This document shows, one piece after another, positions 4,606-51,579 of a stretch of DNA of 64,000 bases. The translations under genes and the position numbers were made by a program. The stretch spans positions 2,484 to 66,483 of the IMG/VR virus record IMGVR_UViG_3300032084_001411; one strand, given 5' to 3'. The stretch's first letter is position 1, and the number at the start of each line of letters is the position of its first letter. Under the pieces are notes generated by a model. The model worked only from the letters and a program-made list of their open reading frames with translations, had not been told where the DNA came from and searched no databases. The DNA comes from a virus.

Positions 4606-4795
4606 AAAATTTAAATTACCAAAAAGAATAAAAGAGAATACGAATAAACCTATAGAAATTGAGGCTATGCTCCTCGAACAAGAATATATGAAGTTACTCG
4701 AAAAAGGTACTCTAGATGAATACGAAGAGTTTCTTTTAGATTATTACCATAAGAGATGTAATAAATTGTGGACTAAAATAGCGAGGAAATCATAA
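4598..4795 (+). CDS. hypothetical protein
   Basis: Short ORF coupled to both neighbours. Confidence 0.5.
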   Translation: MDKKFKLPKRIKENTNKPIEIEAMLLEQEYMKLLEKGTLDEYEEFLLDYYHKRCNKLWTKIARKS

Positions 4796-7623
4796 TGCCA
4801 AGTAAATATACTAACCTATCCTGTCCTTTATGTGATAGTTCTGATGCGGGAGCTATCTATCAAAACATAGACGAGAAATCCGGGGAACCTTTTTTCATGT
4901 TTCGGTGTATGAGCGGTAATCACGCTGACCACCCCAATAATATAAGAATTGAAGACGCTGACAACTATGAAGAGGAAATTATGAACCCTAAAGGTATTCA
5001 AAAGCAACCTTCTGAACCTAGAATGGAGTCTATTGGCTTACTAAATACAGGTAAGTACGAGGACTTAGATAATTCTGATGACCCTTGGGGTTATAGAGGA
5101 TTAACTGCTGAAACTCTAGAATATTACGGAGTTAGTGTTGCTGAGGATGTTGCTTTAACCAGAAATAGGAAAGTTATTGAACAACGTATGGCCGACAACC
5201 TCTCTACTCGCGGGAAAGGACTGGTATTTCCTTATTATTCTAGCGTTGACAACACTTTAATATGTCAAAAAGTACGTACTGCTGTAGACCGTAAAGGAGC
5301 TTGGTATAAAGCTGATAGCACTAGTGTTAGCATGGCGGGTTTCTTTGGGCAGAATCTGTTTAACGCTAATGTTCTAAACGAGATTGCAGTGACTTTTGGA
5401 GAGATGGACGCTATGGCTGTTCACCAAATGGTAGGTGTGCCAACAGTCAGTGTTTCTAATGGGGACCAAGCCGCTCAAGGACAATTTAGGAACGAGTATT
5501 CTTGGCTGTCTAAATTTGATAGAATTATTCTCATACCTGACAATGATGAGTCTTGTCGGTCTATCGTCCCTCTTCTAGGCGCTGTATTTCCGCGTAAGAT
5601 TCGAGTAGTTGAATTAACTAAATATAAAGACCCATGTGAATATTTGATTAACAAGGAGAGGCAGTTATTTGCAGAAGAATTTTATGCTGCTCAACCGTAT
5701 TCCCCTGAAAAGATTATTAACTTATACTCACTTAAAAAGTTGATTTTTGAGGACCCGCCTGAACCTCTAGCGGACTACCCTTGGGAAGGTGTGAATAAAA
5801 AGACAGGTGGAATTTGGGCGGGGGACCTTGTGGTTTTAAAAGCCTTCCCAAAAGTAGGTAAATGCTTCGGCAAGGACACCCCTGTTCTTATGTGGGACGG
5901 TTCTGTTAAAAAGGTGCAAGATGTTAAGGAAGGCGATTTGTTGATGGGTGATGATTCTACCCCTAGAGAAGTAAAATCTTTAGCTAGAGGTAGAGAAAAT
6001 CTTTATAAAGTTAAACAGAATAAACGTATGGATTATGTAGTTAATGAGTCCCATATAATGTCTGTAATGAAAACAGGTTCGTATGAAACTAAAGATGTTC
6101 CGCTATTAGAATACTTAGAAATGCCTCAAAGAGAAAGATGGAAAGGATACGCGGCCCCTGTCTTCAAACAAGATATTGAGGATACTGAAAGACCCAATCT
6201 ATCTTGGGACGCGCAGGTATTGGGCTTGTGGTTGGGCGATGGTACGTCTTTAGAACCTAGCTTTACTACTACTGATGACGAGATAGTTGATTATCTACAA
6301 GAGTATGCGCAATCTCGGGGCATGGAATTCGGCTATAGAAACGGCCCTGACGATATTATATACCGTTTTAAATCAGGTGAGGCGGGAAATAACTACTTCT
6401 TAAACTTGCTTAAAAGACTTGAACTTTTGGGGGATAAACATATACCAGATGAAGTTTATTTCTGGCCTGATTCCGCTCGTTTAAGTTTACTAGCTGGCCT
6501 ATTAGACTCTGACGGACATTTAATTAAAAATATCGACGGGGATATAACTTGTGTAGAAATTGTTCAGAAAAACAAATACCTAGCAAAAGGTATAGTGAAG
6601 TTAGCACAGTTCTGTGGTTTTCGAGCTTCCATGTATCAAACTGAAAAATCATGCACATACAAAGGGGAAAAGCGCACTGGTACTTACTACCGTATATTTA
6701 TTAATGGAGACTTACACAAAATTAATGGCGTTCTACCTCATAAACAAACATACGGGTTTAGAAATAAACGTAACCCCCTTATAACTGGTATAGAAGTAGA
6801 GGCTATTGGTATCGGGGATTACTATGGGTTTGTTTTAGATGGTAACCACAGGTTTTTACTTTCTGACTGTACTGTAGTCCATAACACCACTGTTAGTTCT
6901 GAAATTGTTTATCATCTAAATAAGACAACAGACTACCCTATCGGTCTTATCTTTTTAGAAGAAACTCAAAGAGACTTGATTGTTAGATTTGCTACTATGG
7001 AACTTAATAAGAACTTACAGGTGAGTGGTATATTTAGGGATACTGACCCTTCTGAAATTGAAAAAGCTATTGATGTAACCCTTAGCAGTGAGAAAATTAC
7101 TTTACTAGACCATTTTGGGTCTTGCTCTTCTGATTTCCTAGAAGAGAAAATTAAAGAGTTTGTCTTAGCTAAAGGGTGCCAATTCATCTTTTTCGACCAC
7201 ATATCTATGGCCATTACCGACGATACTAACAAGGACGAGAGACTTGCTTTAGATAGACTTGTGGCCTCTATTAAAGCCTTAACAGTCGGGATAACAGACT
7301 CTATTACAATTCCAGATGAAGAGAACGGGGGCACTAAACAAGAGCAGATTACACGCCAACCTACAGTGTTCATGGTTACCCATGTTAACGACGATGGTAA
7401 GCCTAGAGGTTCCCGCGCTCCGATTCAAATGTGTAATACAATGATTTCTTTGGAAAGGGATAAGAACGCATCGGACGATAATAGCCGCAACACTCTGAAG
7501 CTTTTTGTGGAAGAGAATCGTAGGTTCGGGGATACGGGGTTGGCCAGTGTCCTATCTTATAGCCCCTCTACTGGCCGCTTAAATGAAGTCCCATTAGAAA
7601 ATGAAGGGGAAAGACATGACTAA
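4795..7623 (+). CDS. T7 gp4-like DNA primase-helicase, intein-containing
   Basis: Zn ribbon CPLCDSSDA, TOPRIM GEMDAMA/PDND/KDPCE, Walker A AFPKVGK|T split by intein, FLEE, FDHIS, VTH, RGS, NRRFGDTG. Confidence 0.95.
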   Translation: MPSKYTNLSCPLCDSSDAGAIYQNIDEKSGEPFFMFRCMSGNHADHPNNIRIEDADNYEEEIMNPKGIQKQPSEPRMESIGLLNTGKYEDLDNSDDPWGYRGLTAETLEYYGVSVAEDVALTRNRKVIEQRMADNLSTRGKGLVFPYYSSVDNTLICQKVRTAVDRKGAWYKADSTSVSMAGFFGQNLFNANVLNEIAVTFGEMDAMAVHQMVGVPTVSVSNGDQAAQGQFRNEYSWLSKFDRIILIPDNDESCRSIVPLLGAVFPRKIRVVELTKYKDPCEYLINKERQLFAEEFYAAQPYSPEKIINLYSLKKLIFEDPPEPLADYPWEGVNKKTGGIWAGDLVVLKAFPKVGKCFGKDTPVLMWDGSVKKVQDVKEGDLLMGDDSTPREVKSLARGRENLYKVKQNKRMDYVVNESHIMSVMKTGSYETKDVPLLEYLEMPQRERWKGYAAPVFKQDIEDTERPNLSWDAQVLGLWLGDGTSLEPSFTTTDDEIVDYLQEYAQSRGMEFGYRNGPDDIIYRFKSGEAGNNYFLNLLKRLELLGDKHIPDEVYFWPDSARLSLLAGLLDSDGHLIKNIDGDITCVEIVQKNKYLAKGIVKLAQFCGFRASMYQTEKSCTYKGEKRTGTYYRIFINGDLHKINGVLPHKQTYGFRNKRNPLITGIEVEAIGIGDYYGFVLDGNHRFLLSDCTVVHNTTVSSEIVYHLNKTTDYPIGLIFLEETQRDLIVRFATMELNKNLQVSGIFRDTDPSEIEKAIDVTLSSEKITLLDHFGSCSSDFLEEKIKEFVLAKGCQFIFFDHISMAITDDTNKDERLALDRLVASIKALTVGITDSITIPDEENGGTKQEQITRQPTVFMVTHVNDDGKPRGSRAPIQMCNTMISLERDKNASDDNSRNTLKLFVEENRRFGDTGLASVLSYSPSTGRLNEVPLENEGERHD
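5863..6885 (+). mobile_element. LAGLIDADG intein (341 aa) in helicase Walker A
   Basis: CFGKDTPVLMWDG start, VNESHIM block B, LGLWLGDG and LAGLLDSDG, ends TVVHN|T. Confidence 0.95.
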
Positions 7624-10600
7624 CACGATATTTATAGACTTTGAAACTAGAAGTAAATGTGATATTACAAAAGCAGGTGCTTGGCGGTATTCTCAAGACC
7701 CAACTACTGATGTGATGTGCATGGCGTACGCTATTGATGATGGGCCTGCGCAATTATGGGTTCCTTCTCATTTTGACCTACCCGCTGATTATGAAGAAAC
7801 TCGAACTAAAGACTTACACCATAAAATTAACCTAGCTGAAAAACGTAAAGAAAAATACAGTAAAGAACAGGGCAAAGATGAGTTATACGAGAAAGCTGTG
7901 GAGGAAATTAAATTCTTTAAATCTTTGTTAGACGATAATGGGGAATTTAAACTCTCTTTTACCTACCACACAGATGTCCCCGCTTTTATAACAGATAGAA
8001 AAGTATTTGAAGACGTTGGGGGGTTGTTAGAAGCCCATAACGCTTCATTCGAACAAGCTATATGGGCGAACGTACTCGTACCTAAATATGGAGCTTTTGA
8101 GGCCCCTCCTATTATTTGGAGAGACTCTATGGCTATGTGTGCCGCCCACAACATCCCTCTTTCTTTGGAGAAGGCTGGTGCGGCTTTGAATGTAGATAAA
8201 CAGAAAGACTTAGAAGGTAAGAGGGTTATGTTACAACTTTCTCAACCACGTAAACCTTCTGCGTCTAACCCAAAAGAATGGTGGGAACCAACTGAGGCTG
8301 CTGATAAATTTGAAACCGTATTTATGTATTGTATGGATGATGTGGAGACAGAGCGGGCTATTGGTAAGGCATTAAACCCGCTTACAAAGAAAGAACAGTG
8401 GGTTTGGCTACTAGACCAAATGGTTAACCAACGCGGTGTACAAATAGACGTAGACTTAGTATATCGTTGCCTAGACATTATTAAAGAGCATACAGAAGCG
8501 GGGAAGAGACGGATAACTGAACTTACTAACGGTGAAGTAACAAATGTTTCATTAGTAGCTAAATTAAAAGACTGGGTTATTAGTCAAGGTGTGAAAGTTG
8601 AGGATATGACAAAAGCTTCGGTAGAGGCTCTTTTAGCCGATAAAGACACTCCCGAAAATGTTCGAGAAGCTATGCTTATCCGGCAATCTCTTTCTAAAGC
8701 TAGTACTAAAAAACTAGACACAATGCTATTTGCCAAGGCTATAAACGATAATCGTATTCGGTACACTCTTTTATATCATGGAGCATCCACAGGAAGATGG
8801 GCTGGGAGGCTTATCCAAGTACAAAACTTTCCTAGAGGTTCTATAAAAGATATAGACCAAGCAGTTCAAGACTTATTTGATTTAAGTTTAGAAGAACTGC
8901 AAGATAAGTACGGAGATGTGATGGAAGTCATTTCTTCTTGTCTTAGAGCTATGATTGTACCCGACAAAGGACATGATTTTATTGTTGCTGACTACGGAGC
9001 TATTGAAGCTAGGGTCGTTATGTGGTATGCAGACGAGCAGGATGCTCTACAAAAGTTTCGAGATGGTGTCGATTTGTATAAAGATATGGCGGGCTATGTA
9101 TACGATAAACCTTTAGAGGAAGTCGATGATAGTGAAGAACGTCAATTAGGTAAAAGCATAATTCTCGGTTGTTTCGAAGAGGATACTCCAGTCTTGACAA
9201 ATAGCGGCGTGAAGCGTATTATAGACGTTCATGATACGGATTTGTTATGGGATGGAATTGAATGGGTAAAACACCAAGGACTACAATACCAAGGAATAAA
9301 AGAGACGAAGAGGACTTACGGAATAGGCGCAACTCTGGACCACGAGATTCTAGTGGACGGTACGTGGCAGGAGTGGAACGAGGTAACTACAAACCCTTCC
9401 CTTTTCCAGAAGGCGCTCAATTTGGAGAACTTACCGTCGAGCGCTGGGAACGAAAATACGATAAACGAGGACGCTCTCAAGGCTTCCACCCTCTCTGTTA
9501 TTGTTCCTGTGGCAGACGAACTCATATTGATAGGCACTCCCTTAAATCAGGAAGAACACGCAGATGCAATGTCTGCGCTAAGAAAAAGAGTTCAGCGACC
9601 CGGAAAAAATATATTGGATATGCATCGATTGTACCCGATGACCGACATAGGGAAAGACTGCTTAATAGAATCAGTGCTTGCATCAGCCGATGCCATGTCG
9701 AAAGTAACACCTATTACGAACATTATGGAGGGAGGGGAATTAGAGTCCAACCTGAATGGCGTAGAGACAGAAAATTATTCTTGGAGTATCTTATCACTTT
9801 GGAAGGATGGGACAAACCCTTCCTTGAACTGGACAGAATTGATGTCAACCGTGGATATGAGGAAGGAAATTTACGCTTCTGCACTCGTAGCGAAAACATG
9901 TCAAATCGAAGAAGGGTGTCTGACCTCCAAAAACAAATCAATGAACTCGAAGCAGAGGTCGAGCGTTTACGACATTATGAACGCCGGGCCAAGGAATAGA
10001 TTCACTATTATCACTAACCACGGCCCTATTATCGTTCATAATTGCGGGTTTGGAATGGGGGCTAATAAATTCCAGATGACAACTGAGAGCCAAGGGCTAC
10101 AACTCGATGAGAAGATGGCTGCTGCTGCGGTTAAAGCTTATAGAGAGAAATATTCTGGCGTACCCCAATTCTGGAGAAATACAGAGAAGGCGGCTATTGA
10201 CGCGGTTAAGACTAGAGAACCTCAAGAAACTAACAAAACTACGTGGGTTTTTAACGAAGAAACTAACTTTCTAGAATGTCTACTCCCTTCCGGGCGGTCT
10301 CTATATTATTATAACCCTAAGATTAAAATAGGTTGGGCAGTTAAGTGGATTGACAGTAAAAAGAAGTTTCATTACGATAAATACGATTCTAAAGATGAAG
10401 CTTTACTCGCTCTAAGTGGGCGTAAAGATGACCCACTTTGTACTCGCATAGTTGATAATGACATACATGAAGATGAATCTTTGACCCATATGGGGGTCAA
10501 CAGCGTTACTAAACAGTTTCAACGGCAGGAAACTTACGGCGGGAAGCTTGTGGAGAATGTCGTACAAGCTACTGCCAGAGATTGTATGGTCGAAGGTATG

Positions 10601-10783
10601 TTTAGAACAGAAAAAAATAAATACTTGACAATTATGACAATTCATGATGAAATAGTATCTGAAGTTCCAGAAGGACAAGGTTCTGTTGAGGAATTCGAGT
10701 CTTTATTAGCCCAAACCCCCGAATGGGCTGACGGTCTACCTTTGGTAGCCGAAGGATGGCGGGGAAAGAGATACCGTAAATAG
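7616..10783 (+). CDS. polA: family A DNA polymerase with 3'-5' exonuclease, intein-containing
   Basis: DFETRS, AHNASFE, YCMDDV exonuclease motifs; TGRWAG, QNFPR, ADYGAIEAR (A), RQLGKSIILG|CGFG (B), TIHDEIV (C). Confidence 0.95.
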   Translation: MTNTIFIDFETRSKCDITKAGAWRYSQDPTTDVMCMAYAIDDGPAQLWVPSHFDLPADYEETRTKDLHHKINLAEKRKEKYSKEQGKDELYEKAVEEIKFFKSLLDDNGEFKLSFTYHTDVPAFITDRKVFEDVGGLLEAHNASFEQAIWANVLVPKYGAFEAPPIIWRDSMAMCAAHNIPLSLEKAGAALNVDKQKDLEGKRVMLQLSQPRKPSASNPKEWWEPTEAADKFETVFMYCMDDVETERAIGKALNPLTKKEQWVWLLDQMVNQRGVQIDVDLVYRCLDIIKEHTEAGKRRITELTNGEVTNVSLVAKLKDWVISQGVKVEDMTKASVEALLADKDTPENVREAMLIRQSLSKASTKKLDTMLFAKAINDNRIRYTLLYHGASTGRWAGRLIQVQNFPRGSIKDIDQAVQDLFDLSLEELQDKYGDVMEVISSCLRAMIVPDKGHDFIVADYGAIEARVVMWYADEQDALQKFRDGVDLYKDMAGYVYDKPLEEVDDSEERQLGKSIILGCFEEDTPVLTNSGVKRIIDVHDTDLLWDGIEWVKHQGLQYQGIKETKRTYGIGATLDHEILVDGTWQEWNEVTTNPSLFQKALNLENLPSSAGNENTINEDALKASTLSVIVPVADELILIGTPLNQEEHADAMSALRKRVQRPGKNILDMHRLYPMTDIGKDCLIESVLASADAMSKVTPITNIMEGGELESNLNGVETENYSWSILSLWKDGTNPSLNWTELMSTVDMRKEIYASALVAKTCQIEEGCLTSKNKSMNSKQRSSVYDIMNAGPRNRFTIITNHGPIIVHNCGFGMGANKFQMTTESQGLQLDEKMAAAAVKAYREKYSGVPQFWRNTEKAAIDAVKTREPQETNKTTWVFNEETNFLECLLPSGRSLYYYNPKIKIGWAVKWIDSKKKFHYDKYDSKDEALLALSGRKDDPLCTRIVDNDIHEDESLTHMGVNSVTKQFQRQETYGGKLVENVVQATARDCMVEGMFRTEKNKYLTIMTIHDEIVSEVPEGQGSVEEFESLLAQTPEWADGLPLVAEGWRGKRYRK
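9170..10042 (+). mobile_element. intein (291 aa) in polymerase motif B, no in-frame endonuclease
   Basis: CFEEDTPVLT start, ATLDHEILV block B, VYDIMNAG..F block F, IIVHN|C end; removal restores KSIILGCGFGMG. Confidence 0.95.
9262..9999 (+). CDS. HNH homing endonuclease overprinted within the polymerase intein (alternative frame)
   Basis: GAQFGELTV..CYCSCG..LKSGRTRRC..RC..YEHYGGRGIRVQPEW..LELDRIDVNRGYEEGNLRFCTRSENMSNRR, typical phage HNH family. Confidence 0.9.
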   Translation: MGKTPRTTIPRNKRDEEDLRNRRNSGPRDSSGRYVAGVERGNYKPFPFPEGAQFGELTVERWERKYDKRGRSQGFHPLCYCSCGRRTHIDRHSLKSGRTRRCNVCAKKKSSATRKKYIGYASIVPDDRHRERLLNRISACISRCHVESNTYYEHYGGRGIRVQPEWRRDRKLFLEYLITLEGWDKPFLELDRIDVNRGYEEGNLRFCTRSENMSNRRRVSDLQKQINELEAEVERLRHYERRAKE

Positions 10784-17523: not shown

Positions 17524-17683
17524 TCCACAACTTCTATATGACTCAACAGTTGTATATGATTCAGAACGAGAGTGTTTGCGAGAAGCTAGAGACAGAACAA
17601 GTGCTATACCCGAGGAAGTATTAGACGAAGCAAACTCATTACACTTTGCTTGCTTTTACATACCTGACATTAGAGGTATATAA
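17474..17683 (+). CDS. hypothetical exported protein
   Basis: Hydrophobic N-terminus, two Cys; last gene of + arm. Confidence 0.5.
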   Translation: MSGFWIPVLVLILNSANPQLLYDSTVVYDSERECLREARDRTSAIPEEVLDEANSLHFACFYIPDIRGI

Positions 17684-17692
17684 TGATAAGAA

Positions 17693-46084: not shown

Positions 46085-46116
46085 TTTTCCTCACTTTTAT
46101 AGTACTTCTTATAATA

Positions 46117-48561
46117 CTACTTTTTATTAGTTATGTCAACTTTATTAGGTGTTCCTAAACCAGATAAAGCATCTTTAATCATATCGGCACTTTTCATAAA
46201 TCTAGTTTTAGCCATATCCGCTTTAATCTTATCGGCAACATCAGAAGAGTCTTGGAGCATTTCAACAGCTTTCAAGTCAAGCTTACGCCCTTCAATTGCA
46301 AGTTTAGCGAAATCTTTCTCTTTATCATGCGCTAATTCTTCTCTACGTGTCTGAGCGTTCTCAAGTTCTGATTGAGCGAGCATCGCTGCGGGGTCTTTAG
46401 AAGCAAGAGCCTCTTCAAATGCCTGTGATTCATGGAACTGCTTAATTTGAATAGCTGCATCAGCTAAAGCTTTCTCTCCAGTCTGGCCGCCATTTAACTG
46501 TAATTGACCGCCAATATCTCGTACATAGGCAAACATAGCATGTTCAGCTATATTAGCTTGTAAAAGAGGGATAATAGAGGCCGCGAGGGGCTGTGCGCCG
46601 CCTTTAGGGTCCTCTAAAAACGCTTGTTTAAATGAAATATGAGCCTCATGGTCTTGACCCTCAAATGCTTTAACTGGTTTGCCTTGAGATAGGGCAACAA
46701 TATCTGATAATGGGTCAAGAGGCTGAGCTTCTGCAGGAGGGGGTAGAAGTCTATCAATTTCTTCCGGTTCCATCCCAATTTGTGAATAAAATTCTGTATA
46801 GGCTGCTCGTAAATTATGAATGTCTGGTGCTTGTTGTGCAGCAGCAAGTTTTGTCTGTGCTACAGCAATTCTATGTGCAGAAGAAGAGAGGTTAGGGTCT
46901 GCCGCTGGCATTAAATCTACCTTCCCGCTAAAGTCTTCTTTACGGACACTGAAACTTTGTCCTTTTAAGAAGAAGTCTTGTGTTTCATCAAGCACATCAA
47001 AATTCAAATCATGAAGAATTTGGAATTCTTGTTTAAGACCATTATAGAACCGTTTAAGAATACCTGAAGTAAACTTAGTAGAAGCTTCTAGGAGCGCTAC
47101 AGTTGTCCCTACGGGGCCATAATTAGTAGAATCAGCAAGAACCTGCTCTGTAGTATCCGCAAACTTCTGAGCGCGGCCATCTAAGAATTGCGCTATTCTC
47201 TCTAACACCTGTGAAGGCTCTTTAAAATCGAGAGGCATAAGAACATCTTTAATATTCTTTGTACCTGTATCAATCTCCCGGAACTCTCCAAAACGAATTG
47301 GCATTTGAGAGTCTCGCGTGAATCGAACTCCTTTAGCTCTGAACCCGCCTTGCAGGTTGGAGAACTGGCCTGAGTCAATGAGACTGCGTAAAATAGAAGT
47401 AAGAGCAAACTGAAAGTTTCCTAAAATATGGATATAACCCATACCATGAAACCCGAGACCGGGTATAAGTTGATAATGCGCGTACCACGTTCTTTTCAAC
47501 TTCTTATTGTCAGTTTCTTTCCAATTACGGCGGATACTTAAAATTTTATTACGTGAATCTTCAATAGCAACAATATACGGTAAAGCTCTAGATAGCCCTT
47601 CGTCATACGGGGCGGGTAATTTAAGATAGCAGTGATGTTCTCGAATCTGGAACTTACTAAAAGTAGAAGAGTGCCCCATAGCGTCCCCAGTACCTTCTAT
47701 AACTATCTCAGAATCTACTTTAGTCGGGGAAGCATTACCTACATTAGCAACACTGGAAACTATATCATTATCTAAAGAAAAACCCTCACCATACTCATAC
47801 TCGTCTACGTTTACATACTCGCCAAGTTCGCCTAAATGCTCGAACTCGTGCCTGTCTAACGTAAATAACTCTGTGTGGAAATCAGTGTCCGCAACTGTAG
47901 AAGCATCGGAATTGATAATAAATTTATCTTCTGTTAGGTATTTTGTTCGAGGTCTGTTTTGAATAGGGTCGAAATAATATTTACGATAAGCATTACCTGT
48001 TAGCGCATATCTAAAAGATAGTTTTTCTGTGTCGGGAACAAATTCATTCATTTGATAAAGATATTGGTAATCCATATAATTACGGACACGATTAGAAGAT
48101 TGAATAGTTTCTTCATTTGTCTCTGTTATGAGATACGTGTCTACAAGACCTTTACCTGAGAAAATTTCCCCCATAATTTTTGCCTGAGTTTTTAGGGCTG
48201 ACTCCAAAATCAAAGGATGGGTGATGGGGGACGCACCCGGAAAAGGTTCATCGAGTTCCTCTATCGTTAAACCTAATTTTTCTAATCCTAAATTGATACC
48301 GTCGAAGAACTCGCCGTTAGAAGATAAATCATCATTATATCTATCTTGGCAAAATTGACTAATGCGCCCTAAAGTCTCTTCTTCTAAAAAGACAGCTAGG
48401 TTCGCGTCATGCTCGTTTGAATCGATGTTTGGTTCGAGGTCTTCTTCCTCGTCTGGGTTTGAGAATACTACTTCAATATTCCCTTCATCGTCTGTTGGGA
48501 GTAGTTGAATTTCTAGTTCATCTTCGGGGAGTTCAAAATCTTTAATAAAATCGTCAGCCAT
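46117..48561 (-). CDS. portal protein
   Basis: 814 aa after terminase; PFPGAS..HP, LSIRRNW, PGLGF.G.G, PVGTTVALLE, GQDHEAHI. Confidence 0.85.
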   Translation of the reverse strand: MADDFIKDFELPEDELEIQLLPTDDEGNIEVVFSNPDEEEDLEPNIDSNEHDANLAVFLEEETLGRISQFCQDRYNDDLSSNGEFFDGINLGLEKLGLTIEELDEPFPGASPITHPLILESALKTQAKIMGEIFSGKGLVDTYLITETNEETIQSSNRVRNYMDYQYLYQMNEFVPDTEKLSFRYALTGNAYRKYYFDPIQNRPRTKYLTEDKFIINSDASTVADTDFHTELFTLDRHEFEHLGELGEYVNVDEYEYGEGFSLDNDIVSSVANVGNASPTKVDSEIVIEGTGDAMGHSSTFSKFQIREHHCYLKLPAPYDEGLSRALPYIVAIEDSRNKILSIRRNWKETDNKKLKRTWYAHYQLIPGLGFHGMGYIHILGNFQFALTSILRSLIDSGQFSNLQGGFRAKGVRFTRDSQMPIRFGEFREIDTGTKNIKDVLMPLDFKEPSQVLERIAQFLDGRAQKFADTTEQVLADSTNYGPVGTTVALLEASTKFTSGILKRFYNGLKQEFQILHDLNFDVLDETQDFFLKGQSFSVRKEDFSGKVDLMPAADPNLSSSAHRIAVAQTKLAAAQQAPDIHNLRAAYTEFYSQIGMEPEEIDRLLPPPAEAQPLDPLSDIVALSQGKPVKAFEGQDHEAHISFKQAFLEDPKGGAQPLAASIIPLLQANIAEHAMFAYVRDIGGQLQLNGGQTGEKALADAAIQIKQFHESQAFEEALASKDPAAMLAQSELENAQTRREELAHDKEKDFAKLAIEGRKLDLKAVEMLQDSSDVADKIKADMAKTRFMKSADMIKDALSGLGTPNKVDITNKK

Positions 48562-51550: not shown

Positions 51551-51579
51551 ATTATATTACCTAGTAACAATCTTGTCAA
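51551..51579 (-). promoter_or_regulatory. consensus sigma70 promoter
   Basis: TTGACA-17bp-TATAAT, 6 nt before ATG at 51544. Confidence 0.8.

Follow-up and report, generated by a model that had tools for sequence, protein, structure and literature searches.

The region from 9170 to 10042 of the window, by which we mean the whole stretch of marine phage DNA analysed (64,000 nucleotides), raises the question whether an intein in a DNA polymerase gene can carry its homing endonuclease as a separate gene in another reading frame, as a preliminary description of this DNA had proposed, and whether such an arrangement is new. We consider it quite probable that the locus holds, in motif B of a family-A phage DNA polymerase, a mobile intein of class 1 whose homing endonuclease is a separate overprinted gene (the non-canonical kind of intein). 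The coordinates first given for the polymerase gene, the intein and the nested ORF all held in our ORF calls and translations.

The polymerase precursor is encoded by one ORF of 1060 aa without internal stop. It matched DNA_pol_A in Pfam (E=4.5e-21) and phrog_17, DNA polymerase, in PHROG (E=2.1e-96), and its N-extein was aligned with DNA polymerase I (PDB 8jrb) as far as motif B, at ...EERQLAKAINFG. The features in the polymerase frame, in positions of the window, are as follows.

7601..10783, plus strand: PolA precursor, with a 3'-5' exonuclease-type N-terminal part and then the polymerase domain, interrupted by the intein
7601..9169, plus strand: N-extein, ending in ...ERQLGKSIILG, the start of motif B (Lys and five residues)
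9170..10042, plus strand: class-1 intein of 291 aa (Cys1 ... His-Asn) in the polymerase frame, within motif B
9170..9439, plus strand: Hint N-lobe, intein residues 1-90, blocks A and B, delimited by pLDDT; wobble in the polymerase frame to about 9364
9443..9940, plus strand: intein linker, residues 92-257, a stop-free shadow of the nested gene, predicted to be disordered and missing from a mini-intein relative (P0107)
9941..10042, plus strand: Hint C-lobe, residues 258-291, blocks F and G (VYDI ... VHN), pLDDT 90-96; wobble in the polymerase frame resumes at about 9950
10043..10783, plus strand: C-extein, with the +1 Cys first (CGFGMG...) and the remainder of motif B

The splice residues of the window are C at 9170-9172, HN at 10037-10042 and the +1 C at 10043-10045. 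Among 81 non-redundant related polymerase ORFs, Cys1 was found in all 78 with a residue at that column, the penultimate His in 79 and the terminal Asn in 80, and the +1 residue was Cys in 78 and Ser in 3. In 60 aligned inteins, T55 and H58 of block B, D268 of block F and N291 were invariant, and H290 was nearly so. AlphaFold prediction of the intein in the polymerase frame gave pLDDT values of 96-98 for residues 1-80, 79 for residues 81-90 and 90-96 for residues 258-291, with values below 50 across the 166 residues from 92 to 257. This model suggests a Hint fold with a disordered linker. The middle part noticed earlier does exist, but its length, put at about 190 aa, is better given as these 166 low-confidence residues. 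A Foldseek search of the PDB with the intein returned inteins or Hint-type domains in all the best rows (6frg, E=1.9e-3, prob 1.00), with Ssp DnaB, DnaX, gp41-1, Npu DnaE and Mtu RecA among the leading ones and prob 0.97-1.00 in the top ten; these E values (at least 1.9e-3) lie slightly above the tool's 1e-3 line, and the alignment covers the N-lobe only, in 74-88 columns. No intein or Hint sequence model of Pfam or NCBIfam matched 9170-10042 at E<=1. Elsewhere in the same window there is a helicase intein that does match Hom_end_hint. Given an essential host gene and the conserved catalytic residues, the precursor would be expected to splice out the intein and restore motif B.

Within this intein lies the second ORF.

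9262..9999, plus strand: nested gene of 245 aa for a putative PacI-like, HNH-family, homing-endonuclease-like protein, in the -1 frame, with ATG at 9262 and TAG at 9997-9999

It is on the same strand as PolA at an offset of +2 (= -1), begins 92 nt past the first intein base and stops 43 nt short of the last. Across the nested ORF region, the polymerase frame has 0 stops and the third frame 25. When the nested protein was fixed and its synonymous codons were redrawn from the usage of the window, a mean of 10.6 polymerase-frame stops arose; when the ORF's own codons were permuted, the mean was 6.1. Stop-free outcomes numbered 0/20,000 in both cases. The longest shifted-frame open run in the other ORFs of the window of at least 250 aa (42 frame/ORF combinations) was 95 codons. 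Both frames are open over the nested ORF, as had been claimed, and this is not chance, the redraws placing it far beyond chance. We also looked for the split-intein (fractured gene) layout and found that the host gene is not broken but runs on as one continuous ORF. The intein is contiguous and apparently functional, and its linker is the sequence that a separately encoded nuclease-like gene yields when read out of frame.

Related loci (n=85) comprised four named phages (Jerseyvirus Ent1, EBPR siphovirus 2, Pseudomonas MR14 and Vibrio 97.13) and 81 IMG/VR loci, namely 3 and a further 78 that came from taking the best 80 of 461 matching stretches in an IMG/VR scan. Whether homologues at the site keep both frames open had been raised as a check. 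They do: identical nesting and offset were found in 83 of the 85 loci, a set drawn largely from the best 80 of 461, and the remaining 2 are cut by contig ends. The third frame was open across the nested ORF in none of the 85. As for nested-frame stops in homologues, named in advance as a point against the proposal, the nested ORF is truncated in L037 (160 aa) and L076 (143 aa), where the polymerase frame is still open; of the 83 loci that no contig end interrupts, 81 keep it whole, at a core identity that averages only about 53%.

The window is a metagenome assembly, and two compensating indel errors might have shifted an in-frame HNH domain into the position of the nested ORF. We regard this as a practically negligible possibility. 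The polymerase frame would then carry about 10 stops, and the same offset recurs in the 83 independent loci, four isolated phages among them. An indel check came out in favour of the sequence as assembled, since the contigs that an independent assembler built from run X1, which may be the source sample, span 8900-10300 and nowhere depart from it (0 differences, 0 gaps). In a second run, a 295-nt contig is identical to the window over 8997-9291. As weak evidence in the same direction, no in-frame polymerase-nuclease fusion was seen among the 10 longer relatives found.

Analysis of codon positions in 81 sequences showed that polymerase position 3 is the most variable one in the exteins and the Hint lobes. 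Between 9410 and 9949 this role passed to polymerase position 2 (= nested position 3), which led in each 45-nt bin (0.54-0.70 vs 0.21-0.60 for the others), and from 9950 it returned to polymerase position 3. Selection had been expected to favour the nuclease frame in the linker, and codon-position diversity does switch to the nested frame at about 9410-9950. Judged from this switch, purifying selection maintains the nested gene as read in its own frame over about 540 nt.

9409..9949, plus strand: part of the overlap under nested-frame purifying selection as indicated by the codon-position switch, nested residues about 50-229

In view of this switch it is extremely improbable that selection acts on the polymerase frame alone and that the nested ORF is left over, silent, from a nuclease that was once in-frame or free-standing. 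The two truncated ORFs among the 85 loci would fit a relic, and the mini-intein relative without a nested ORF indicates that loss does happen; against it stand the intact ORFs of nearly all uncut loci despite their divergence. Moreover, when the polymerase-frame protein was kept and codons were redrawn, 24.3 stops arose in the nested frame, which was open in 0/20,000 redraws.

Our analysis also revealed a candidate promoter and a possible ribosome-binding tract upstream of the nested ORF, inside Hint codons.

9194..9222, plus strand: candidate sigma-70-like promoter with -35 TTGACA, 17-nt spacer and -10 TATTAT, in intein codons 9-18
9248..9264, plus strand: purine-rich tract TGGGATGGA (W-D-G codons) and nested start codon, weakly Shine-Dalgarno-like

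The promoter-like site scores 11/12 against the sigma-70 consensus, which may not be that of the host. Its -35 is formed by the Leu9-Thr10 codons, and the nested ATG follows 40 nt downstream of the site. Only 5 sites of at least 11/12 exist in the 128 kb of the window (both strands). A match of at least 10/12 with the -35 exactly on intein codons 9-10 was found in 29 of 55 non-redundant loci against a background of 5 per 151,432 positions in the same ORFs, a conservation that is partly forced by the conserved amino acids V-L-T and I-V and for which binomial statistics ignore the relatedness of the loci. The Leu9 codon is TTG in 41 of 51 loci (vs 12.3% of extein Leu codons), and in 44 of 55 the third base of the residue-16 codon is T although different loci encode different residues there (P, A, R, D, S), the background of third-position T being 15.9%. 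In 16 of 78 loci there is no promoter match of at least 9/12.

The nested ATG consists of the last base of a Glu codon and the TG of a conserved Trp codon. Its column held 54 ATG, 19 GTG, 5 TTG, 1 GTT and 2 gaps in 81 rows, that is, a start codon in 78 of 79, and A is present at 9262 in 41 of 55 loci. Of 70 loci, 46 had nested-frame stops within the first ~30 intein codons, and only 5 had any across the ~49 codons from start to core; an ATG precedes the nested core in each of the 70. As these alignments indicate, synonymous codon choice preserves the promoter-like hexamers and the start codon in related loci. Expression of the nested gene is most likely independent, from a putative promoter activity of this site. 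The suggested decoupling of nuclease expression from the polymerase is likely, given the conserved embedded promoter-like site and start codons.

Alternatively, the nested ORF might be reached by a -1 ribosomal frameshift near 9391-9406, which would give an extein-HintN-nuclease fusion. The nested frame is indeed the -1 frame of the polymerase, and a C/T-rich run lies at the Hint/nuclease boundary, but no X_XXY_YYZ heptamer was found in the polymerase frame at 9391-9409. Over the ~49 codons that precede the core, 65 of 70 loci keep the nested frame open, and all 70 have an ATG there; both facts speak against a frameshift, because one at the boundary would need neither. The fixed column of the start codon and the conserved promoter-like site upstream also argue against it, as does a Streptococcus phage, whose homologous intein has the same nuclease family in the +1 frame. 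This makes a frameshift very improbable, and we retain the view that the nested gene has its own start.

PHROG HNH families matched the nested ORF (phrog_374, E=7.5e-33; phrog_3377, 2.9e-18; phrog_2081, 6.4e-18), with a weak match to phrog_1035 'endonuclease VII' (E=1.3e-5), and no HNH model of Pfam or of NCBIfam matched it at E<=1. A search of both frames with profiles, as had been advised, was therefore divided in its outcome: the PHROG families match the nested frame, but the HNH and the intein/Hint models of Pfam and NCBIfam match neither frame. AlphaFold predicted the nested protein with a mean pLDDT of 84, above 90 from about residue 45, including strands at 189-192 and 204-207 and a helix at 209-214 (pLDDT >90). 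Two features of the protein are placed as follows.

9826..9906, plus strand: predicted beta-beta-alpha motif, residues 189-215, L-D191-R192-I-D ... G-Y199 ... N203-L-R ... N212 .. N215
9502..9576, plus strand: four Cys (C81, C83, C102, C105), invariant or nearly so, a presumed zinc site

From the model, the four-Cys site is presumed to sit in an SH3/Tudor-like (CapR-homology-like) N-terminal domain. Residues 42-101 gave CarD/Tudor-like structural matches (Z 4-5), and a relative of the nested protein (P0205) matches the Pfam CapR domain (E=6.3e-6). In the beta-beta-alpha motif, D191, R192, Y199, N203 and N215 are invariant in 40 sequences, distant free-standing relatives included, and N212 is kept in at least 90%. 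The position of the canonical HNH general-base His is taken by the invariant Arg192, after the invariant Asp191.

Foldseek found nothing in the PDB with the nested protein. In a structure comparison with 48,161 chains, PacI came top with a Z of 5.5, in the range the tool calls 'middling' (rmsd 3.6, 88 aligned, nested residues 114-218), and DraIII (4L0K; PMC3996161) matched with a Z of 4.0. Profile alignment to PacI 82-111 (VDRSD..GYSPQNARL) had D-R-x-D...G-Y-x-P-x-N-x-R in common at E values of 0.43-1.4, which are not significant, and the nested profile met I-HmuI in the PDB at E=0.27, above 0.1. PacI (PDB 3M7K/3LDY; PMC4081073) resembles the nested protein in the motif V/L-D-R-x-D ... G-Y-x-P-x-N-x-R and in its Cys4 zinc sites; it differs in being a 142-aa restriction enzyme and not a mobile-element protein, and by these E values and Z the likeness is modest. 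In the cited accounts, PacI is an active HNH enzyme that binds metal via Asp and Asn and uses Tyr as base (PMC4081073), with N113 as a metal ligand (PMC3996161); in a gap-free alignment N113 would fall on nested N212. The nested protein thus appears to be PacI-like, with a D-R...GY...N...N motif without the canonical His, and would probably be a nuclease. The earlier wording, 'intact HNH endonuclease', is not supported: an invariant Arg stands in place of the canonical His, and the putative activity would be that of PacI's motif.

An unlikely alternative is that the nested protein is not a nuclease but a sequence-specific DNA-binding protein, targeting or regulatory, on a degenerate HNH scaffold, and that any mobility of the intein depends on another nuclease. 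The replacement of the general-base His by Arg192 and the lack of a Pfam HNH match would fit this. The PHROG names may also stem from fused members, the nested protein matching only 198-355 of the 617 positions of phrog_374. A finding against our own explanation is that two longer relatives have a homologous module fused, on its C-terminal side, to another domain that is itself recognised as a nuclease, Pfam HNH_3 in P0247 (390-416, E=1.6e-7) and DUF559 in P0249 (E=6.9e-15), which would fit a DNA-binding rather than a catalytic role. However, the active restriction enzyme PacI has the same D-R...G-Y...N...N motif, also without the His (PMC4081073), and the residues of this motif are invariant, or for N212 nearly so, even in distant free-standing relatives. 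Hundreds of free-standing relatives of ~200 aa consist of the module alone and are annotated as HNH endonuclease in phage records, and one of them splits polA in phage U1G, like free-standing homing endonuclease genes. We therefore keep to the reading of the nested gene as a homing endonuclease.

On this reading, translation in the polymerase frame would give Hint-N (~90 aa), Hint-C (34 aa) and, between them, a disordered linker (~166 aa) that would serve no purpose beyond staying stop-free; the whole would be excised and motif B restored. The DNA read one base upstream would give the 245-aa protein, made up of a Cys4 SH3-like domain, a helical/'YGGRGI' part, the PacI-type beta-beta-alpha motif and a C-terminal helix. 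Transcription may start from the sigma-70-like site in the Leu9-Thr10 and residue 16-18 codons, and translation from the Trp-overlapping ATG, and such expression would uncouple nuclease supply from polymerase synthesis. In a co-infection, the nuclease would cut an intein-less polA near motif B, and repair would copy the intein in.

The allele states were compared in relatives. Between Ent1 and SETP7 the joined flanks align gap-free, and SETP7 and Xp12 have 0 residues in the intein columns; intein-bearing and intein-less alleles are both present in Jerseyvirus. In twelve IMG/VR alleles without the intein the sequence is ...SALLG-CGYGLGW, identical to what splicing is predicted to leave in their intein-bearing relatives. 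The 'RQSAKSALLG' lineage contains 17 intein-bearing loci (counted by eye), 12 empty alleles and one mini-intein, and the mini-intein relative P0107 has 140 aa, with nested ORF and linker absent. Relative to the empty alleles, the insertion is precise and in-frame at a conserved site, as read from these sequences. Distribution among related exteins is sporadic, with empty, mini-intein and decayed alleles coexisting. The intein family uses three insertion sites in motif B (Lys+5, Lys+1 and Lys+2). A search for recent horizontal transfer found 0 locus pairs with nested core identity >80% and extein identity <50%. The family is broad, with the 461 matching IMG/VR stretches and about 150 Salmonella phage records.

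The overprinted arrangement looks like a stable state and not a passing one, because it persists to a mean nested-core identity of ~53% in >80 loci; the idea of an intermediate between a mini-intein and a split intein does not sit well with this. The other-frame nuclease of the Streptococcus phage intein may mean that the overprinted state arose or was re-framed more than once. A wider reading, which we offer tentatively and rate as slightly less likely than not, is that the nested gene is an autonomous transcription unit (host-type promoter TTGAC-N17-TATnnT in the Val-Leu-Thr and residue 16-18 codons of block A, start codon from the conserved Trp codon), that the intein family moved at least three times between three adjacent motif-B codon positions, and that the overprinted state, with its repeated origin or re-framing, is a stable design. 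If this is true, ~100 nt of the intein hold three superimposed codes (Hint protein, promoter and translation start), and the published question how 'hidden' intein endonucleases are expressed gets an answer.

As to novelty, out-of-frame intein endonucleases were reportedly described in 1998 by Gorbalenya ('Non-canonical inteins'). The kind of layout is already known from other exteins, from 1998 and 2025-26. Gosselin et al. and Phillips et al. both cite Gorbalenya 1998 (10.1101/2025.01.02.630785; 10.64898/2026.09.14.751524), and the suggestion of a third, undescribed architecture has to be given up, same-strand out-of-frame and antisense intein endonucleases being published in these two reports.

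In actinobacteriophage inteins, an endonuclease VII-like homing endonuclease lies 'in reading frame 3 relative to the intein' (Gosselin, Arsenault, Gogarten; 10.1101/2025.01.02.630785). As here, these inteins are contiguous and hold, between their splicing blocks, a nuclease ORF on the same strand with the same frame offset; the host frame is open, the in-frame middle is predicted to be unstructured, and the nuclease is of the beta-beta-alpha-metal superfamily, with free-standing relatives. Our locus differs in being in motif B of a family-A polymerase in non-actinobacterial phages and in marine or other metagenomes, whereas the polymerase extein in that report is the Pol III alpha subunit, and in its PacI-like D-R...GY...N nuclease with only a weak phrog_1035 match. 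The family here is much larger and older, and has a conserved embedded promoter-like site and several insertion sites; expression was left open in the cited part of that report.

The cyanobacterial dnaX intein has an out-of-frame LAGLIDADG endonuclease in a +2 ORF (Phillips, DeSimone, Gogarten; 10.64898/2026.09.14.751524). Common to both are an overlapping second frame, where selection over the overlap is purifying for the nuclease and relaxed for the host reading, coexisting mini-intein and empty alleles, and, as the proposed origin, a mini-intein that was invaded secondarily. That endonuclease is LAGLIDADG in a cellular host gene, with no promoter analysis in the portion cited, while ours is HNH-type in a phage gene. 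The ShiLan-domain insertion in a mycobacteriophage DNA methylase also has a hidden out-of-frame HNH endonuclease with the host frame open, and the question of its translation was raised explicitly (Arsenault et al. 2025, PMC11855218). It has no splicing domains, and the insert is thought to stay in the protein, whereas the intein here would remove the shadow; leaderless GTG initiation was proposed there, in contrast to the conserved sigma-70-like promoter and ATG here. In fractured genes, a homing endonuclease gene stands free between the halves of a split intein (Dassa et al. 2009, PMC2677866). They resemble our locus in that the intein goes with a nuclease which is translated separately and related to free-standing ones, in promoter elements upstream of the nuclease in or next to host coding sequence, and in short coding overlaps; but the host gene there is in two ORFs and must trans-splice, while here it is continuous and the whole nuclease is overprinted.

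So far, overprinted intein endonucleases comprise a few dozen actinophage inteins and one cyanobacterial gene, and the authors of these reports state that the expression route of the hidden gene is not known to them (10.1101/2025.01.02.630785; 10.64898/2026.09.14.751524). Added here are the embedded promoter-like site, the three insertion sites, and the empty, mini and decayed alleles. The site and the start codon inside Hint codons offer a concrete, testable answer on expression. The PolA intein family is large, old and present in easily handled Salmonella, Escherichia, Pseudomonas and Vibrio phages, and it is a clean natural experiment on dual coding, in which selection changes frame sharply at two points. 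It may also point to a PacI-like HNH subfamily as homing enzymes. The predicted tolerance of the Hint domain for a 166-residue unstructured linker is of practical interest for intein engineering. The nested protein of the window was missing from the protein collection searched, and records label the region just 'DNA polymerase', so that the nested gene has been overlooked by gene callers.

Re-derivation of the ORFs confirmed every coordinate that the preliminary description had assigned to the intein of the polymerase gene (PolA) and to the ORF nested within the intein. The three features are:

7601-10783, plus strand: PolA ORF, 1060 aa, family-A DNA polymerase (Pfam DNA_pol_A, E = 4.5e-21; phrog_17, E = 2.1e-96)
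9170-10042, plus strand: intein of 291 residues, the first being Cys and the last two His-Asn
9262-9999, plus strand: nested ORF of 245 codons, from ATG 9262 to TAG 9999, one base upstream in frame of PolA

Measured from the outermost bases of the intein, the nested ORF begins 92 nt after the first and ends 43 nt before the last. The alignment of a solved DNA polymerase I to PolA ends at ...EERQLGKSIILG, facing ...EERQLAKAINFG. This end point is the beginning of motif B, which is completed by the Cys-Gly-Phe-Gly found directly after the intein. PolA is adjoined upstream by a primase-helicase gene (4795-7623, plus strand) with a Toprim-like N-terminal part, and the two ORFs overlap by 23 nt (7601-7623). 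The primase-helicase bears a second intein, which is canonical and has its LAGLIDADG endonuclease in-frame (Hom_end_hint, E = 2.2e-21 at residues 357-425; Hom_end/LAGLIDADG_3 at 562-639). The same pair, a helicase with an intein adjoining a polymerase with an intein, was found in Jerseyvirus Ent1.

The splice residues were counted in 81 non-redundant polymerase ORFs, five duplicate ORFs having been dropped beforehand. The first intein residue was Cys in all 78 rows with a residue there, the penultimate residue was His in 79 of 81, and the last was Asn in 80 of 81. Residue +1 was Cys in 78 ORFs and Ser in the other 3. T55 and H58 of block B, D268 of block F, and N291 were invariant across 60 aligned inteins. 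An AlphaFold2 model of the intein, built on the 60-intein alignment, had a pLDDT of 96-98 at residues 1-80, 79 at 81-90, below 50 at 92-257, and 90-96 at 261-291. The top Foldseek rows for this model were inteins or Hint-type domains, inteins first (led by the Ssp DnaB mini-intein, DnaX, gp41-1, Npu DnaE, and Mtu RecA; probability 0.97-1.00 in the top ten), with E values of at least 1.9e-3, slightly above the tool's line. No meaningful match was obtained by phmmer against PDB sequences with either the intein or the nested protein as query.

SETP7 and Xp12 have no residues in the intein columns, and the joined flanks of Ent1 aligned with SETP7 without gaps. Twelve empty alleles from IMG/VR read ...RQSAKSALLG-CGYGLGW, identical to the predicted spliced product of intein-bearing relatives; they were drawn from other polymerase lineages, because an IMG/VR search for close relatives of the window's own extein (the flanking polymerase part) returned one distant locus only. 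Judged from these alignments, the insertion of the predicted intein is precise relative to intein-less alleles. A related protein, P0107, has a mini-intein of 140 aa in which the equivalent of about 9452-9949 is missing. A scan with P0107 as query returned full-intein or empty alleles only, and no mini-intein DNA.

Within 9262-9996 there are no stops in the polymerase frame and 25 in the third frame. When the nested protein was held fixed and its synonymous codons were redrawn from the window's own codon usage (GC 38.9%), a mean of 10.6 polymerase-frame stops arose, and none of 20,000 draws was stop-free. Permutation of the nested ORF's own codons among synonymous sites gave a mean of 6.1 stops (stop-free 0/20,000), and fixing the polymerase-frame protein instead gave a mean of 24.3 nested-frame stops (open 0/20,000). 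Elsewhere in the window, shifted-frame open runs in long ORFs reach 95 codons at most. Contigs made by an independent assembler from a run that is possibly the source sample showed no differences and no gaps over 8900-10300, and a contig of a second run was identical to the window across 8997-9291. The double-open arrangement is neither chance nor artefact.

A tblastn search with the nested protein gave matches in 677 phage records. The top matches sit under genes named DNA polymerase in EBPR siphovirus 2, Vibrio phage 97.13, Pseudomonas phage MR14, and about 150 Salmonella phages; in the Jerseyvirus Ent1 record, the depositors annotated only an intein "encoding splicing domains". At the DNA level, a search of phage records with 9000-10200 gave no match. 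With 40 aligned nested proteins as query, a scan of IMG/VR yielded 461 stretches that matched; the best 80 of these were retained. Across 85 related loci from named phages and IMG/VR, the frame one base downstream of the nested frame was open across the whole nested open stretch in 83; the remaining two were cut by contig ends. Set against the nested open stretch, the third frame never spanned it in the 85 loci (4-166 codons). The nested ORF is shortened to 160 and 143 aa in two loci (L037 and L076), where the polymerase frame is still open; these two were excluded from the identity and tree analyses. Loci missing the needed columns were also dropped, leaving 78 for ORF-end offsets, 68 for identity, and 70 for upstream stops.

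Mean pairwise nucleotide diversity per codon position was computed in 45-nt bins of a codon alignment of 81 sequences. In the exteins and in the intein up to 9364, polymerase position 3 was the most variable (0.49-0.71). Across 9410-9949, in 12 of 12 bins, it was polymerase position 2, equivalent to position 3 of the nested frame (0.54-0.70 vs 0.21-0.60 for the others), and from 9950 onward it was polymerase position 3 again. Therefore, selection reads the polymerase frame in the two splicing lobes (Hint-N and Hint-C) and the nested frame between them. The structure predictions agree with this pattern: the modelled nested protein has a pLDDT above 90 from about residue 45 and is poor at residues 1-44, which overlap Hint-N, and the polymerase-frame linker is unstructured in its predicted model. 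The invariant G197 of the linker is presumably a shadow of nested-frame constraint.

The central inference of the preliminary description was right: the splicing domain is predicted to excise what is only the frame-shifted shadow of a putative nuclease with a coding frame of its own. Its claim of novelty did not stand, since the general architecture is already in print. Gosselin et al. (bioRxiv 10.1101/2025.01.02.630785) describe actinophage inteins in which an endonuclease VII-like gene lies "in reading frame 3", and also report antisense genes of LAGLIDADG or VSR-like type. Phillips et al. (bioRxiv 10.64898/2026.09.14.751524) report a dnaX intein under frame-specific selection, and both papers credit Gorbalenya 1998. 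The hidden HNH of Arsenault et al. 2025 (PMC11855218) is not accompanied by splicing domains, and these authors raise the question of how such genes get translated. Our literature search found the general architecture and no description of the polymerase/PacI-like HNH family, of which a mention in Gorbalenya 1998, the PacI structure paper or supplements is possible. Three points would, if they hold, be additions of specialist interest: a promoter embedded in the intein, shifts of the insertion site, and an active site of PacI type.

In PHROG, the nested protein matched families that bear the name HNH endonuclease (lowest E, 7.5e-33); no intein, Hint or HNH model of Pfam or NCBIfam matched the polymerase frame or the nested frame. 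Residues C81, C83, C102, C105, R143, C144, Y155, G156-G159, and W166 are invariant or nearly so in 40 relatives, as are D191, R192, Y199, N203, R205, N212, and N215 in the C-terminal part. The predicted model has the following parts:

SH3/Tudor-like domain: holds the four Cys C81, C83, C102, and C105; CarD/Tudor-like matches (Z 4-5) fall on residues 42-101
other parts: a helical part, a beta-beta-alpha unit (189-214), and a long C-terminal helix

A relative of the nested protein matches the Pfam CapR domain. A comparison of the model with 48,161 solved chains ranked PacI, a restriction enzyme of the HNH type, first (Z 5.5, rmsd 3.6, 88 aligned, residues 114-218); another HNH enzyme, DraIII, gave Z 4.0. 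Foldseek against PDB returned nothing for the nested protein at E<=1e-3. Its C-terminal half, searched as a profile, matched PacI 82-111 below significance (E = 1.4), with the common motif L/V-D-R-x-D...G-Y-x-P-x-N-x-R, and the whole-protein profile against PDB gave I-HmuI at E = 0.27 and PacI at E = 0.43. The general-base His of canonical HNH is absent from the nested protein, its position being taken by the invariant Arg192. PacI likewise has no canonical His; its metal is held by Asp and Asn, and a Tyr is the base (PMC4081073). In the ESM Atlas, the neighbours of the nested protein are viral clusters without names and one whose automatic name is "Homing endonuclease family protein" (0.91), which is a lead only.

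A DNA-binding or targeting unit instead of a catalytic one would also fit the nested module. In two longer relatives, P0247 and P0249, the nuclease-like module (Cys4 domain, YGGRGI, and LDRID...N) occurs once or twice and precedes a separate nuclease domain, HNH_3 in P0247 and DUF559 (Vsr-like) in P0249. From its sequence motifs and predicted fold, we read the nested protein as a putative PacI-type HNH nuclease. Our search for longer relatives joining the nuclease in-frame to a polymerase found 10 proteins, none with DNA_pol_A, which is weak evidence. Distant relatives (27-35% identity) are free-standing genes in many phages, annotated as HNH endonuclease or hypothetical. One of them, of 219 aa and 31.7% identity, lies between two polA ORFs in Escherichia phage U1G (1223-4642 of that locus), overlapping them by 4 and 20 nt. 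The U1G polA is split between the NLQTIP motif and motif A, unlike at the window's site, and no intein halves are visible.

The ATG at 9262 straddles two polymerase-frame codons of the motif W-D-G-x-E-W: its A is the final base of the Glu codon, and its TG comes from the conserved Trp that follows. The start column of 81 rows holds ATG in 54, GTG in 19, TTG in 5, GTT in 1, and gaps in 2, a count that alone is weak evidence because the Trp fixes T-G; the synonymous position of the start codon is A in 41 of 55 non-redundant loci. Nested-frame stops occur in the first 30 or so intein codons in 46 of 70 loci, and across the approximately 49 codons between the start and the conserved core in 5 of 70 only. 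All 70 have an ATG within the open stretch upstream of the core. This argues for initiation there and against a frameshift at the Hint/nuclease boundary as the route to the nested ORF; inspection of 9391-9409 also revealed no canonical slippery heptamer in the polymerase frame. Upstream of the start, a consensus scan identified one candidate element:

9194-9222, plus strand: sigma-70-like promoter match TTGACA-17-TATTAT, 11/12, 40 nt upstream of the ATG

Its -35 hexamer is the block A Leu9-Thr10 codon pair, and its -10 hexamer runs from the last base of codon 16 to the second base of codon 18. Conservation was assessed in 55 non-redundant loci, after 23 of 78 near-duplicates (>88% nucleotide identity) had been dropped. 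Of the 55, 29 have a match of at least 10/12 whose -35 falls exactly on codons 9-10 and whose spacer is 17 nt; the background in these ORFs was 5 among 151,432 positions. The P values overstate this contrast, the sequences being related, and the match is partly forced by conserved amino acids. Leu9 is TTG in 41 of 51 loci (28 of 39 with GC >=0.55), vs 12.3% of extein Leu codons. The third base of codon 16 is T in 44 of 55, with a varying residue (Pro, Ala, Arg, Asp, Ser) and a background third-position T of 15.9%; Pro16 is CCT in 22 of 24. On this codon usage, the hexamer biases are nucleotide-level constraints beyond what the Hint protein explains. No match of at least 9/12 was found in 16 of 78 loci. 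The nested gene is probably expressed from its own embedded candidate promoter and start codon.

The window has five sites of at least 11/12 on both strands in all. The other four, at 46111-46139 (minus), 48052-48080 (plus), 51551-51579 (minus; a perfect TTGACA-17-TATAAT), and 17655-17684 (plus), are probably real early promoters. These sites suggest a host using standard sigma-70. The RNA of 9222-9302, which includes the nested start, gave no structure signal on folding (z = -0.03), and terminator-like sites in 8800-10300 are on the minus strand only. The splice junction itself provides the stop of the nested gene in about 15 of 78 loci: the stop codon is made across the conserved His-Asn codons (CAT-AAY, giving ..T-AA) and ends 1 nt short of the last intein base.

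Counted from the Lys of motif B and written as the site before Cys, the insertion site is Lys+5 in 65 of 78 loci, the window among them, Lys+1 in 11, including Jerseyvirus Ent1 and Pseudomonas MR14, and Lys+2 in 2. Each of the three sites has Cys or Ser at +1 (the flanks are 9149-9169 and 10043-10060 in the window), and the +1 Cys is already present in empty alleles (SETP7, ...GKACELGLGY; IMG/VR, ...SALLGCGYGLGW). In a FastTree tree of the Hint and nuclease core, well-supported branches force at least three site changes. Mean identity over 2278 pairs was 54% for Hint, 53% for the nuclease core, and 33% for the extein; that inteins are on average more alike than exteins suggests transfer. No pair had a nested core above 80% and an extein below 50%, as looked for in recent horizontal transfer.

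A homologous PolA intein at the Lys+5 site was also found in Streptococcus phage PhiSdyV1524-fexAoptrA (2239-3165 of that locus). Its nested ORF (2378-2968) belongs to the same nuclease family, with 29% identity to the window's, and lies in the +1 frame, not -1; the relative frame of the nested nuclease is therefore not universal. The polymerase frame there has no stops and the third frame has eight, and a strong GAGAGG-type ribosome-binding site precedes ATG 2384. The overprinted state thus seems either to have arisen a second time or to have changed frame.
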